Positions 2,459 to 62,520 of a stretch of DNA of 64,000 nt are shown here, piece after piece. The number at the start of each line of letters is the position of its first letter. Within the stretch, counting starts at the first letter, position 1. This DNA comes from Escherichia phage ECP2301, in the sequence record OR880646.1. One strand, written 5' to 3'. The notes beneath the pieces are model-generated. The model did not search any database. It was not told where the DNA came from and was given only the letters and a program-made list of their open reading frames with translations. The position numbers were made by a program, and so were the translations under genes.

Positions 2459-4275
2459 TACTGGCTCATCCATTCTTTACGAAGGTCAGCATTATCTCCC
2501 ATGAGCATTTCAAAAAGCTCTTTCCAATTCTCAGGAAGTTTAACAACATCATATACTGGGTTTTGAATCATCTCACGATATTCAGATTTTTCCAAAGAGC
2601 CAAGTCCCTTAATATAACGGATGCTATGTTTAGGTAGAGCATCTTTGGCACTCTCATATTCAGCGACTGTATAAAACCATTCTTGTTTTTTACCGACCTG
2701 AGCGATGATTACAGGAGTTTTGACGAAACGAATTCTTCCTTGTTCAAACAGTTCTGGCCAATTACTAAAAAATCCGAGCAGAGAAGGATAAATGCTCCCT
2801 AGACCATCATGGTCAGCATCAGTCATAATAGCAATATTATGATAATTCAAGTTTTCAGCTTTTTCACCAAGAACTAATCCAGTGATTGCGCAAATGTCAA
2901 ACAGTTCTTTGTTTTTAAGCATATCGGCATATGACATACCCCAGCTATTAAGAACTTTACCACGCAATGGATAACCACCATGAAGTTCTTTATCACGAAC
3001 ATCAATAAGATATCCGATAGCAGAATCACCTTCAGTCAAGAAAAGAGTAGTATCAGCATCTTTACCACAAAGATTCGCTTTAATATGTTTATGAACCTTA
3101 GCTTTAGAAGCCTTTTTAGCTGCTTTAGTTTCTGCTGCCTTTTCTGCCGCCAATTTACGAGCCAAAGCAGCTTCAATAATTGGCATTAAAATTGCTTCAT
3201 TGTTTAAAATAGCGCGTGAAATCTTTTTAGCATCAAGCTGAATATGACTACGAATTTCACCAAATGGAGAAGTCAAACGCTCTTTAGTCTGAGAATCAAA
3301 TCGCATGTTTTTCATATCACGAACAAACATAACGATAGTCAAACATTCTTTAACCCGTGCTTTAGTTACATCAATTTTGAACTTACGTTTGATTTGTGGA
3401 ATAAGGTCTTCACAAATATCATCCATAACACAGTCAATGTGATGGCCACCATTCTTAGTATGAATGTTATTGACGTATGTTAATTGACGAAAACCATCCG
3501 GTGAACGACCAACCGCAATAGAACAATTTTCCTGTTCTTGAACGATAGCATGCTCATCATATTGGCGTGCATATTTCTTAAAATTACCCTGAACCTTTTT
3601 ACCATTAAAGGTAAATTGAATATCAGGATAAACTACTGCAAGTGTCTGGAGACGATCTAGTGTAATGTCAAGATAAACTTGAGATAGCTCATTAGTTTCA
3701 AATGACATAAAATCAGGAATGAAAGTAACACGAGTTCCTTTCCATTTTCCAGGAATAGTTTCCCATGATTTATTTTCCATGCCATTTGAACAACGAACTA
3801 CAATATTATTTTGACCATCGCCAGTTTCACCGACAAACATCACAGAAAAAATGTTAGTTAAACTAGAACCAACACCGTTCATACCGCCAGTGACGCGTTC
3901 TTTATCATCACCGAAGTTACCACCTGCTTTTGGAATAGTCCAGGCAGCAACAGGACCAGGAATTTCTTCACCAGTAGGTGTTTTAACCATCGCTTGTGGA
4001 ATACCACGACCGTTATCTTCAACTGTTACTTGATTGTTTTTAATAGTAACATTAATTTTATTCGCGAATTTAAACTTAGTACGAATACCTTCATCTACTG
4101 AGTTATCGATAATTTCATCAATAAGCTTAACAAGACCAGGTACATACTGAACACTTTCCCATTTACCAAACAGAAAGCGCTCATGCATTTCATTAGCAGA
4201 AGAGCCAATGTACATGCCGCTACGCTTTTTGATATGTTCAATATCGCTCAGAATTTTAATTTCATTCTTAATCAT
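2458..4275 (-). CDS. 39: DNA topoisomerase II large subunit, single uninterrupted ORF covering the T4 gene 39 and gene 60 regions, 605 aa
   Basis: GyrB-like ATPase motifs (MYIGS, EDNGRGIP); C-terminal part (AIMTDADHDGLGSIYPSLLGFFSNWPELF...KEWMSQ) is continuous with no gap; first track codon is GTG, ATG at 4275 has GAGGA upstream. Confidence 0.9.
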   Translation of the reverse strand: MIKNEIKILSDIEHIKKRSGMYIGSSANEMHERFLFGKWESVQYVPGLVKLIDEIIDNSVDEGIRTKFKFANKINVTIKNNQVTVEDNGRGIPQAMVKTPTGEEIPGPVAAWTIPKAGGNFGDDKERVTGGMNGVGSSLTNIFSVMFVGETGDGQNNIVVRCSNGMENKSWETIPGKWKGTRVTFIPDFMSFETNELSQVYLDITLDRLQTLAVVYPDIQFTFNGKKVQGNFKKYARQYDEHAIVQEQENCSIAVGRSPDGFRQLTYVNNIHTKNGGHHIDCVMDDICEDLIPQIKRKFKIDVTKARVKECLTIVMFVRDMKNMRFDSQTKERLTSPFGEIRSHIQLDAKKISRAILNNEAILMPIIEAALARKLAAEKAAETKAAKKASKAKVHKHIKANLCGKDADTTLFLTEGDSAIGYLIDVRDKELHGGYPLRGKVLNSWGMSYADMLKNKELFDICAITGLVLGEKAENLNYHNIAIMTDADHDGLGSIYPSLLGFFSNWPELFEQGRIRFVKTPVIIAQVGKKQEWFYTVAEYESAKDALPKHSIRYIKGLGSLEKSEYREMIQNPVYDVVKLPENWKELFEMLMGDNADLRKEWMSQ

Positions 4276-17005: not shown

Positions 17006-17170
17006 TTACTCTTCTTTTTCTTTAGATTCCTCTTTTTTCTTTTTAGGAATCTGTTCAGGACCTTTATTTACTACAGCGCCTGACGTTGTTCCAGTGGAGA
17101 TATTTTCAGGATTACCACCTGAATCTCCAGCTACCATATCTTCTTTGATAAATTCTTTATATGTTTTCAT
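17006..17170 (-). CDS. small protein with capsid-targeting-like N-terminus (MKTYKEFIKE), 54 aa
   Basis: Hand-translated, below track cutoff; fills the gap exactly between the 17172..17798 stop and the gp61 start. Confidence 0.35.
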   Translation of the reverse strand: MKTYKEFIKEDMVAGDSGGNPENISTGTTSGAVVNKGPEQIPKKKKEESKEKEE

Positions 17171-58883: not shown

Positions 58884-59162
58884 TTATTCTTTAAATCTAA
58901 TCAATTTATTCATAGACTTTGAAACTTCTGCACGGACCTCATGTAGGTTTTTAAGCTGTTCAAGACGTTGCTCATAGTAAGCAATTTCATCTTCTTCTAG
59001 ACAGTCCTGTGAATCTTCTTTAAGATAACGTGCATAGTCCTGGAAAGCTTTACGGACTACTTCCTGGAAGTCATCAAGACTTTGAATTTTCTTAGGAGCA
59101 ACAGATACACGACGGTCTGCTGCATAATAATGAGTACCAAAACCTGATAGCAATTGTGCCAT
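58884..59162 (-). CDS. hypothetical protein, 92 aa
   Basis: Start moved to ATG overlapping upstream stop. Confidence 0.4.
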
Positions 59163-59458
59163 TAATATTTTTCCTCTGGTTGGAACACAGCACGACAAGC
59201 CCACATACTGGCTTCTTTGAGTTTCGTTTTAGCAATAGTTAACTGATCGAGGCTTTCAGCATAATTCTTCGCGAATTCACAGTCTTCACAATTATCCAGT
59301 GCTTCCCAAAATTCATCGTATAAAGCGTCAAAGATAAGTCCTAAACGAACTTCAGCATCTTTGATAGCATTCACTTTACCGATTTTCTCTTCAGTATGTG
59401 GCTTATAACCTTTAATATCTTCAATCATATTTGACTTCCTCACCAGTACATAAATCAT
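59162..59458 (-). CDS. hypothetical acidic protein, about 98 aa
   Basis: ORF; start uncertain (alternative ATG at 59428). Confidence 0.35.
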
Positions 59459-60010: not shown

Positions 60011-60340
60011 TCAATTAGAAAATAAATTTATCCAAGACTGTTCTTTAATTAAAAATGGCTCAGAATCATATGCCATTAAACTTTGGGTGATTAGTCCTTT
60101 AAAAGGACCATCAATAAATTCCATGGTAAAATATGGAATTTTATTCATTAATCTTGCATTAGGAGCAGTACACAAAACTCTGCATCCTTTGAATACACCT
60201 TTTTGTAATTTGTATTGCTTATGATAAAATTCGCTCAAGACGTTGTTATTTGCCAAAATTTCAAAATGATTCACCAATTTATTTTTAATAGTTTTTGGCG
60301 AAAAATAAAGATATTCGAAAAGCTGTGTGTCTGTCATCAT
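60011..60340 (-). CDS. hypothetical protein, 109 aa
   Basis: Start moved to ATG overlapping upstream stop (ATGA). Confidence 0.4.
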   Translation of the reverse strand: MMTDTQLFEYLYFSPKTIKNKLVNHFEILANNNVLSEFYHKQYKLQKGVFKGCRVLCTAPNARLMNKIPYFTMEFIDGPFKGLITQSLMAYDSEPFLIKEQSWINLFSN

Positions 60341-60924
60341 TGCATTCCGATTACGAAAAACTGCGGACGAGTAATACCACCAATGCAACATTTAATATTA
60401 CAGCAGTAGTGTACAGTGTCAATATGGACGCTATAAATCTTATCCATATCAGGAGATTTAACAGGCTCATCGATTATATACAAAATCCGCGAAAGCGATA
60501 AACCTCTGAACTTGCTTCCTTTATTACCGATAAAACTACGGACAGAATCAGTAAATAAGCGGAATCGAATATCATCACTAGAATAACGAGAAAATTCTTT
60601 TTTAATGTGGCCTGCAGAAATTTTAGCGTAAGCTGAAGTATTAGAAAGAACAATAACTGTTCCACCATCATACAGCCAATTAGCAGCAAAGTTAGTCACA
60701 GCAGTTGATTTACCAGATTGACGTCCACCATCTAGTCGAAGTGTACAATATTGTTTAAGCAAGTCTTCAAATGGTGGGATATAATCGTTTTTACAAATTT
60801 CTTCTACTCTAGCATCAGAATGGTGTGTAAAAGCATTCATCAGGGATAGATAAGGGCCAGTTAAAAATGTTCTCATTTTATTATCTCTAAATTTGGGCCA
60901 TTCCATGGCGCATGAATTGTCCAT
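60337..60924 (-). CDS. small P-loop NTPase (Walker A GGRQSGKST, Walker B ILYIIDEP), 195 aa
   Basis: ORF with Walker motifs, next to the internal-protein gene. Confidence 0.45.
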   Translation of the reverse strand: MDNSCAMEWPKFRDNKMRTFLTGPYLSLMNAFTHHSDARVEEICKNDYIPPFEDLLKQYCTLRLDGGRQSGKSTAVTNFAANWLYDGGTVIVLSNTSAYAKISAGHIKKEFSRYSSDDIRFRLFTDSVRSFIGNKGSKFRGLSLSRILYIIDEPVKSPDMDKIYSVHIDTVHYCCNIKCCIGGITRPQFFVIGMQ

Positions 60925-61030
60925 TTTCTGTATTTACCCATTACCGCACTCAGGCTCGACCTTATTACAGGTTGGCGGGAATCCCTCATAGAATCATGAG
61001 GTCCAGCTTGTTCCCATATTTCTTATTTGC

Positions 61031-61504
61031 TTATTTGAATGATTTGACGTACTGAATAGAGCCTTTGCTATTCACGAAAGCGATTTTACCATTTTTGTTA
61101 TACATGGTAGCAGTACGCTGATAACCATAAGTTTGCTTACCAGATTGATAACCAACTAATGCAAAATTATCTTCACCCATTTTATTCTGCTTCGCGCGGA
61201 TACGTTCATGACCGTGCGCCATAAGAACCTTAGCATCGCCAGTTGAAATTGATCTACGAGTTTTTTCATCTTCAACTGTACTAACAAAGTCGTCAAATGA
61301 ATCAAATTTAGCATGAGATTTATTATACAGTTTTCCATCTACTGCATAATTATATCCCTGTACATCCATCTCAACTTCTGTACCATCATCCAATACAGCA
61401 GTGATTTTTTGACCTTTTTTAAATTTCAAAAGATCAGTAAAAGATTCAGCAATAATTTGAGAATTAATAGCTGCTTCAGTGATAAATTCTTGATATGTTT
61501 TCAT
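61031..61504 (-). CDS. phage internal protein with capsid targeting sequence (MKTYQEFITEA), 157 aa
   Basis: N-terminal 11 residues match the T4 IP capsid-targeting consensus MKTYQEFIAEA; length differs from T4 IPII/IPIII. Confidence 0.65.
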   Translation of the reverse strand: MKTYQEFITEAAINSQIIAESFTDLLKFKKGQKITAVLDDGTEVEMDVQGYNYAVDGKLYNKSHAKFDSFDDFVSTVEDEKTRRSISTGDAKVLMAHGHERIRAKQNKMGEDNFALVGYQSGKQTYGYQRTATMYNKNGKIAFVNSKGSIQYVKSFK

Positions 61505-61513
61505 GTGTTTCCT

Positions 61514-61930
61514 TTAAATGTAAATATTTTTACCGTAGTATTTATACCAGTGTGGCTTCATTAAAATTTTTTCATCGAGTCGTTGTTGACTCAATTTAAT
61601 AGCTGATTTGCATGGATTATAATCATTTTTCCATTCTGCTGGAATATCGCTGATGTCAGGAACTTCAGTATCTTTTATACTAAACCCACGTTTTAAGCAT
61701 TCCGTTATAATGTCTGATTGACGCTTTCGCAAAAATTCTAACTTATCATAAAAGAACGTAACATGACCAGAACCTAAAATAAACTCGGAAGATATTTTAA
61801 AATCTTTAACCCGTTTACCATTTGCAACATGTTTACGAACTATACCAAAAACACGCGGCAGTTCACGGTATTCTGCGATTAAATGTTGATCAGCAAGTTC
61901 AGATACTAAAGTCAAATTAATACGAGTCAT
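61514..61930 (-). CDS. denV: endonuclease V (pyrimidine dimer DNA glycosylase), 138 aa
   Basis: N-terminus [29 protein letters not shown] and 138 aa match T4 DenV as I recall it. Confidence 0.9.
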
Positions 61931-61955
61931 TTTATCCCTCCAAGTAACTGTGAAT

Positions 61956-61985
61956 ATATTATCACAATTCTAGGAGAAAGTAAAC
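61956..61985 (-). promoter_or_regulatory. early promoter-like element upstream of denV (GTTTAC, degenerate -10)
   Basis: GTTTAC 18 bp from TAATAT-like -10. Confidence 0.35.
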
Positions 61986-61989
61986 AACT

Positions 61990-62520
<531 letters not shown>

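Follow-up and report, generated by a model that had tools for sequence, protein, structure and literature searches.

The 157-aa open reading frame (ORF) that follows denV in Escherichia phage ECP2301 (sequence record OR880646.1; the whole stretch of 64,000 nucleotides that was analysed is referred to here as the window) is the gene of the known internal head protein Ip4, lying in a normal regB-to-e segment of a Tequatrovirus and in an arrangement that is common among these phages. According to this reading, to which we assign a probability of roughly 85%, ip4 and denV are independent cassettes, and the genes that come after them, vs.8 and vs.7, are fixed early genes located outside the ip cassette. 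Public records already contain the gene and the order in which it lies, together with its name and Pfam family, and no discovery is claimed. The value of the window lies instead in its use as a map: of the four classes of a polymorphism between e and vs.8, it represents the one with both denV and ip4, and the boundaries that it reveals for the ip4 cassette leave out both vs.8 and vs.7.

Gene order and identity of Ip4

The features of the locus are all encoded on the minus strand (Table 1), and their order along the direction of transcription is e, denV, ip4, vs.8, vs.7, the GrcA-like vs.6, vs.5, vs.4, vs.3 and regB. A preliminary description of this DNA, made from its letters, had placed three ORFs of 157, 195 and 109 aa upstream of denV. 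This is correct in plus-strand numbering, but in the sense of transcription the three ORFs sit downstream of denV. [quoted passage not shown]

Table 1. Features of the e-to-vs.7 interval, in window coordinates and in the order of transcription.
Feature	Position	Strand	Basis or remark
Gene e, encoding a T4-type lysozyme of 164 aa; borders the variable site upstream	61990..62484	-	Pfam Phage_lysozyme, 1.3e-13
e-denV intergenic region, 59 bp	61931..61989	-	Intergenic sequences compared side by side
denV (endonuclease V, 138 aa)	61514..61930	-	Pfam Pyr_excise, 2e-13; PHROG 1183, 1.5e-62
ip leader AAAAATATTTACATTTAAAGGAAACAC (with Shine-Dalgarno) and CTS-coding 5' end of ip4	61473..61532	-	blastn against T4 ipII and ipIII
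ip4 (IpIV), internal head protein, 157 aa	61031..61504	-	Pfam DUF7412; PHROG 3155
Capsid targeting sequence (CTS) of ip4, residues 1-10	61475-61504	-	
Conserved segment 5' of the Vs.8 start; downstream boundary of the ip4 cassette	60877..61019	-	
vs.8 ortholog, 179 aa from MRTFLTG	60337..60876	-	Open frame to 60924 (195 aa)
Walker A GGRQSGKS of the 195-aa ORF	60706-60729	-	
Walker B ILYIIDE of the 195-aa ORF	60466-60486	-	
vs.7 ortholog, 109 aa	60011..60340	-	PHROG 2049, 8.7e-54
ATGA overlap of vs.8 stop and vs.7 start	60337-60340	-	

The sequence of the 157-aa protein identifies it as Ip4 (IpIV). It matches the Pfam family DUF7412 (PF24183) at 1e-95 with 318.6 bits, far over the curated cut-off of 27 bits and across residues 1-157 of the 158 profile positions, and it matches PHROG 3155, annotated as 'internal virion protein', at 1.8e-101. 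With T2 IpIV and AR1 Ip4 it shares 98.7% identity, and a fold search of BFVD retrieved Ip4 of phage K3 (UniProt Q38388) at 97% identity; for the mature body of the protein, fold searches gave no informative match. The designations ip4-10 are reportedly found in a 1994 paper. The family matches bear out the earlier assignment of the ORF to the CTS-bearing internal proteins, and the remark that its length resembles neither T4 IPII nor T4 IPIII also holds, because these have 100 aa and 193 aa, respectively. Outside the CTS, no similarity of Ip4 to either of the two was detectable.

The N-terminus, previously noted as a near-consensus CTS, is identical to that of IPIII at Y4, F7, I8 and E10. In IPIII, the first 10 residues suffice for packaging, with residues 4 and 7 serving in targeting and residues 8 and 10 in processing (PMC9026906). 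Among 13 members of the Ip4 family (60-98% identity), F7 and E10 are invariant, and positions 4 (Y/F) and 8 (I/L/M) vary only conservatively. The gp21 protease cleaves after L/I-x-E, and the propeptides of internal proteins comprise 10-19 residues (PMC9026906). Ip4 shows a gp21-type motif, I-T-E followed by A, at residues 8-11, and a second one, [ILM]-x-E followed by A or S, at residues 18-21, of which E20 is invariant in the 13 family members. The predicted mature Ip4 would thus have 137-147 aa and a pI of 9.1-9.3. In the literature library that was searched, no report of virion proteomics for Ip4 was found.

The DNA that encodes this N-terminus is likewise of the internal-protein type. A 34-nt sequence made of ip leader and CTS, in which one degenerate Y position accommodates a C/T difference from T4, has a single, mismatch-free match in the window, where 100 shuffles give an expectation of 0, and the CTS is therefore not due to chance. 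By blastn, the 5' end of ip4 is 93% identical to that of T4 ipII over 60 nt and 91% identical to that of T4 ipIII over 47 nt. The leader abuts the end of denV, overlapping its last codons and its stop codon, and ip4 is the gene that stands behind this conserved ip leader at the e-proximal ip site.

Cassettes between e and vs.8

The preliminary description regarded the locus as rearranged. The order does differ from that of T4 (e-ipIII-ipII-denV-vs.8), but it is not new: the denV-ip4 junction is present in at least 164 phage records, as counted with a 241-nt probe across the junction at a coverage of at least 80%. The window shares its order e-denV-ip4-vs.8 with pSs-1 and BW-1. In T2, AR1 and F2 the order is e-ip4-vs.8 and denV is absent, and the gene map of EC128 reads e-denV-vs.8, with no internal protein at the site. 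Similarly, the junction sequences of ES21 and APTC-EC-2A join denV directly to the segment upstream of vs.8, again with no internal protein. A further combination, e-Ip4-ipII, is found in the Klebsiella phage 311F, a Jiaodavirus.

The boundaries of the exchanged DNA can be placed by comparison with T4, to which the flanks of the window are about 94% identical (93% for the flank in the e region). According to blastn, homology with T4 stops at 61019, right after the ip4 stop codon, and restarts at 61941, right before e. The denV gene enclosed between these points is a divergent allele, with 78% identity to T4 denV in DNA and protein alike. In EC128-type phages, ip4 is cleanly missing between TTTAAA and TTCAAA. 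Taken together, the arrangements and the boundaries imply that ip4 and denV are cassettes independent of each other. Each is gained or lost within a stretch that is delimited by the conserved segment 5' of vs.8 and, on the side of e, by a conserved early promoter and the ip leader. That internal-protein loci are hypervariable, as had been stated for this locus, agrees with published accounts of their variation from phage to phage (PMC3012670; PMC9026906).

The region between e and denV is homologous to the DNA that separates e from ipIII in T4 and from ipIV in T2, and it then switches to the denV ribosome-binding site. It contains GTTTAC(N17)TAATAT, which, judged against the T4 early-promoter consensus, we infer to be a T4 early-promoter-like element; it was not picked up by a scan for generic sigma-70 promoters. 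A second candidate signal, a perfect late-promoter motif (TATAAATA), is located inside denV at 61546-61539, 35 nt 5' of ip4, where it arises from synonymous codons in a WYKYY stretch. As a conserved feature of the denV-ip4 arrangement this motif was rejected, since TATAAATA is found in the window, pSs-1 and BW-1, whereas TATAAGTA or TACAAGTA stands in its place in Kelasse, G29, JK1 and ESh18, whose arrangement is the same. The motif is thus missing in four of the six other phages of this arrangement, and no claim of late ip4 expression from the site is made.

Homology with T4 is continuous from vs.1 through vs.8 to the conserved segment in front of it, and therefore the ip4 cassette excludes vs.8. 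This speaks directly against the proposal that ip4, the P-loop protein and the 109-aa ORF constitute one rearranged accessory module, moved together as anti-defence cargo. The three genes are indeed co-oriented and tightly packed, two of them overlap by ATGA, and the wider vs cluster has proven anti-defence genes, all of which would suit such a module. However, the neighbours of ip4 are orthologues of T4 Vs.8 (90% identity; PHROG 1488 at 7e-79) and Vs.7 (97% identity over 109 aa), which are placed in T4 as they are here although T4 has no Ip4; EC128 likewise has both genes while lacking an internal protein at the site, and T2 combines ip4 and vs.7 with a broken vs.8. Joint movement of the three genes is accordingly very improbable. 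Since Vs.8 and Vs.7 keep their T4 order and position without Ip4, they are not part of the ip cassette, and the earlier suggestion that they are accessory cargo tied to the internal protein does not stand. Correspondence of all three ORFs to conserved T4 ORFs in the same order had been named in the preliminary description as the outcome that would speak against it; such correspondence was found for two of the three, Vs.8 and Vs.7, and not for Ip4.

Vs.8, Vs.7 and the vs cluster

The length of 195 aa earlier given for the P-loop ORF is that of its open frame. In an alignment of 18 family members, reaching down to 40% identity, the conserved Vs.8 begins at Met17 of the ORF and has 179 aa, with GGRQSGK and IIDEP showing little or no variation. 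T4 Vs.8, in contrast, is annotated as a protein of 219 aa, which includes an N-terminal extension of 40 aa that is out of frame in the window, T2 and AR1. About 140 nt of DNA 5' of the Vs.8 start are conserved in T4, T2, AR1 and EC128. When the window, T4, T2 and AR1 are aligned, this segment shows 1-nt and 8-nt indels that do not keep the frame, and it is therefore probably non-coding. It probably comprises the promoter and 5'-UTR of vs.8. The segment has a GC content of about 41%, compared with about 35% nearby. A structured RNA was considered for it and rejected, as the segment has no Rfam match, a fold z-score of -0.06 and an energy equal to that of shuffled sequences.

Vs.8 shows a distant resemblance to the ATPase of the terminase gp17. 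As in the gp17 ATPase domain, its Walker A motif is of the type RQxGK[ST] and its Walker B motif of the type hhhIDE, with the same spacing between them; unlike gp17, Vs.8 has 179 aa and is devoid of a nuclease domain and of the N-terminal gp16-binding region. Alignment of Vs.8 to residues 160-275 of T4 gp17 with hhalign gave a weak match (E=0.0025; probability 11.7%) with Walker A and B in the correct register. The match to the terminase family PHROG 2 was also weak (7.9e-6), that to Pfam Terminase_6N (14.8 bits) was under the cut-off of 22, and no terminase match in the PDB was found by sequence. According to a 2026 preprint, the product of T4 vs.8 is structurally similar to the gp17 terminase ATPase and becomes toxic if the sensor EcAvs2 is expressed alongside it.

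These observations raise the idea that Vs.8, perhaps with the translationally coupled Vs.7, is a terminase-ATPase paralogue that takes part in defence or counter-defence, for instance as a decoy for terminase-sensing Avs. The alignment of RQSGK[ST] and IIDE with gp17, the PHROG terminase match, the findings of the preprint and the vicinity of vs.8 to the genes for Acb2 and TadIV-1 all point in this direction, as does the state of vs.8 in T2, where two 2-nt deletions have broken the gene, which is therefore dispensable. On the other hand, activation of Avs2 would harm the phage rather than benefit it, the similarity to gp17 is weak by both hhalign and Terminase_6N, and the fold of Vs.7 is uninformative. 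Nor do we know of any vs.8 mutant phenotype, which also counts against the idea. A role of this kind is unlikely on balance, the alternative being that Vs.8 is a housekeeping NTPase.

For Vs.7, an AlphaFold2 model (pLDDT 90.4) predicts two N-terminal helices and an SH3-like barrel, and a fold search with this model gave no informative match. Homologues of Vs.7 carry the precomputed Pfam family PF26834, and relatives are few, only 16 among 1.8 billion representative proteins. Long repetitive matches to Vs.7 (P0051, P0057 and P0059) were discarded as artefacts of tandem-repeat translation. The T4 orthologues of the pair, Vs.8 and Vs.7 (T4p119 and T4p118), follow each other as they do in the window; their genes likewise overlap by 4 nt and are likewise neighboured by vs.6, vs.5, vs.4 and vs.3. 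Some GenBank records label Vs.7, Vs.8 and Vs.3 as 'endoribonuclease'. These labels are unsupported by Pfam, PHROG, NCBIfam and PADLOC and were taken to be propagated names. When the PADLOC profiles of defence systems were run against the three proteins, the matches were at noise level only.

Further downstream lie Vs.4/Acb2, 100% identical to its T4 counterpart, and Vs.3/TadIV-1, 91% identical to that of T4. Acb2 is a published anti-defence protein that acts as a cGAMP sponge, and TadIV-1 is a published anti-Thoeris IV sponge. With both of them in the vs cluster, the region is rich in counter-defence genes. This richness belongs to the conserved vs cluster of T4 and not to an ip-linked module. 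Hence the proposal of anti-defence neighbours fails for cargo linked to ip4, but it has some merit independently of ip4, given Acb2 and TadIV-1 nearby and the toxicity of Vs.8 with EcAvs2.

Possible roles of Ip4 and its relatives

By reference to T4 biology, the CTS would bring Ip4 into the scaffolding core of the prohead. There, as its motifs suggest, the gp21 protease would trim it after E10 and probably also after E20, leaving a protein of about 15.5 kDa. If Ip4 behaves as the internal proteins of T4 do, roughly hundreds of copies may be injected with the DNA, after which Ip4 probably acts as a binding inhibitor of one particular host nuclease, or modification-dependent restriction enzyme, that attacks glucosyl-hmC DNA. 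The model for this last step is provided by IPI*, Ip2 and Ip3: T4 Ip1, Ip2 and Ip3 each inhibit one distinct type IV restriction enzyme of the GmrSD type (PMC12373910), and the anti-restriction picture of internal proteins given elsewhere is in agreement with this (PMC3012670). By this analogy, Ip4 probably blocks a specific nuclease directed at modified DNA. The mature domain of Ip4 shows no sequence or fold relationship to the GmrSD inhibitors IPI*, Ip2 and Ip3. Furthermore, Silas et al. tried ip4-10 on additional GmrSD variants and saw no reproducible inhibition (PMC12373910), a result that counts against the anti-restriction step; the ip4 of that screen is matched to the present protein by name.

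The outcome of this screen would also suit a different role, in which Ip4 is mainly a structural or DNA-associated filler of the head without a dedicated anti-defence target, aiding the assembly of the core or the condensation of DNA, a function that has been suggested for IPIII. The basic character of mature Ip4 and the slower head assembly of T4 IPIII mutants (PMC9026906) fit such a role as well. Yet phages that are nearly identical differ in whether they carry ip4 (in EC128 the site is devoid of an internal protein, and T4 lacks Ip4), and thus Ip4 is not needed for head assembly. Moreover, the sequence of its globular body changes little from genus to genus, many positions being invariant, which points to a specific binding partner over bulk charge, and three of three T4 internal proteins are specific nuclease inhibitors (PMC12373910). 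We therefore consider a mainly structural role to be quite improbable, and a specific nuclease as the target of Ip4 remains the preferred reading.

A broader proposal can be formulated tentatively. Injected Ip4 might inhibit some host defence other than the tested GmrSD variants, and the regB-to-e interval, with Vs.3/TadIV-1, Vs.4/Acb2, Vs.8 and the ip cassettes, might form an anti-defence island whose cassettes are swapped via the conserved early promoter and ip leader, with Vs.8-Vs.7 as a terminase-mimic module. Taken as a whole, this is conceivable but rather doubtful. Whatever its target, Ip4 is a putative injected protein that is widespread in T-even phages, being encoded in 470 phage records from several genera.

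Among known systems, the closest are the Ip4/IpIV proteins of K3, T2 and AR1, which are the same protein as that of the window (97-98.7% identity from end to end, and the same CTS) and are likewise positioned beside gene e or denV. The surroundings differ in that ip4 directly follows e in T2, AR1 and F2, which lack denV, whereas denV stands between e and ip4 in the window, an arrangement common to pSs-1, BW-1 and about 160 other records. T4 IPI*, IPII and IPIII resemble Ip4 in having an N-terminal CTS (10 of 11 residues), ip leader DNA, a basic mature protein and an L/I-x-E cleavage site for gp21, and the T4 internal proteins and Ip4 occupy the same hypervariable site beside e. They differ from Ip4 in length, and the resemblance between the proteins is confined to the CTS.

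Putative transcription signals at e and vs.8

Two TATAAATA late-promoter motifs lie in tandem immediately upstream of gene e, and a similar pair of late promoters precedes e in T4. Read-through from these putative promoters could provide late transcription of denV and ip4.

The segment of approximately 140 nt that lies 5' of the conserved Vs.8 start is 93-95% conserved in T4, T2, AR1 and EC128, but its reading frame is shifted by indels among the compared phages despite this conservation of the DNA. The T4 annotation assigns the equivalent segment to Vs.8, which it thereby extends by 40 aa at the N-terminus. Since an Rfam search of this segment returned no match and its folding was not in excess, it probably comprises the promoter and 5'-UTR of vs.8.

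Features of the ip4 region and of the primase-adjacent ORF in the window
Feature	Position	Strand	Assignment
e promoters	62498-62518	minus	putative tandem late promoters
denV	61514-61930	minus	divergent allele
Segment 5' of vs.8	60877-61019	minus	probable vs.8 promoter and 5'-UTR
Vs.4	59162-59428	minus	100% identity to T4 Vs.4/Acb2, cGAMP sponge
Vs.3	58884-59162	minus	91% identity to T4 Vs.3/TadIV-1, anti-type IV Thoeris sponge
gp61.1-like ORF	17006-17170	minus	CTS-like N-terminus

Neighbouring counter-defence genes and a second CTS-like ORF

The identities of Vs.4 to Acb2 and of Vs.3 to TadIV-1 place two proven counter-defence genes less than 2 kb from the ip4-vs.8-vs.7 locus. Several deposited GenBank annotations, e.g., that of phage BW-1 (2124-2989), give Vs.8, Vs.7 and Vs.3 as 'endoribonuclease'. 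None of the profile libraries searched supports this label for the three proteins; the name appears to have been carried over from one annotation to another.

Besides ip4, another ORF of the window has a CTS-like N-terminus (MKTYKEFIKED..., with I-K-E at residues 8-10). It adjoins the primase gene 61 and encodes a small, acidic/lysine-rich product of 54 aa that is 96% identical to T4 gp61.1.

Variation of vs.8 and denV among T-even phages

In phage T2 (LC348380.1), two distinct 2-nt deletions break vs.8 (3615-4150), of which the annotation shows solely a 110-aa remnant; Ip4 and vs.7, which flank it, are both intact. The denV allele of the window shares 78% identity with that of T4, at the DNA and protein levels alike, whereas the flanks on both sides show approximately 94% identity, a sequence pattern that indicates mosaic replacement of denV. 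T2, AR1 and F2 lack denV at this site.
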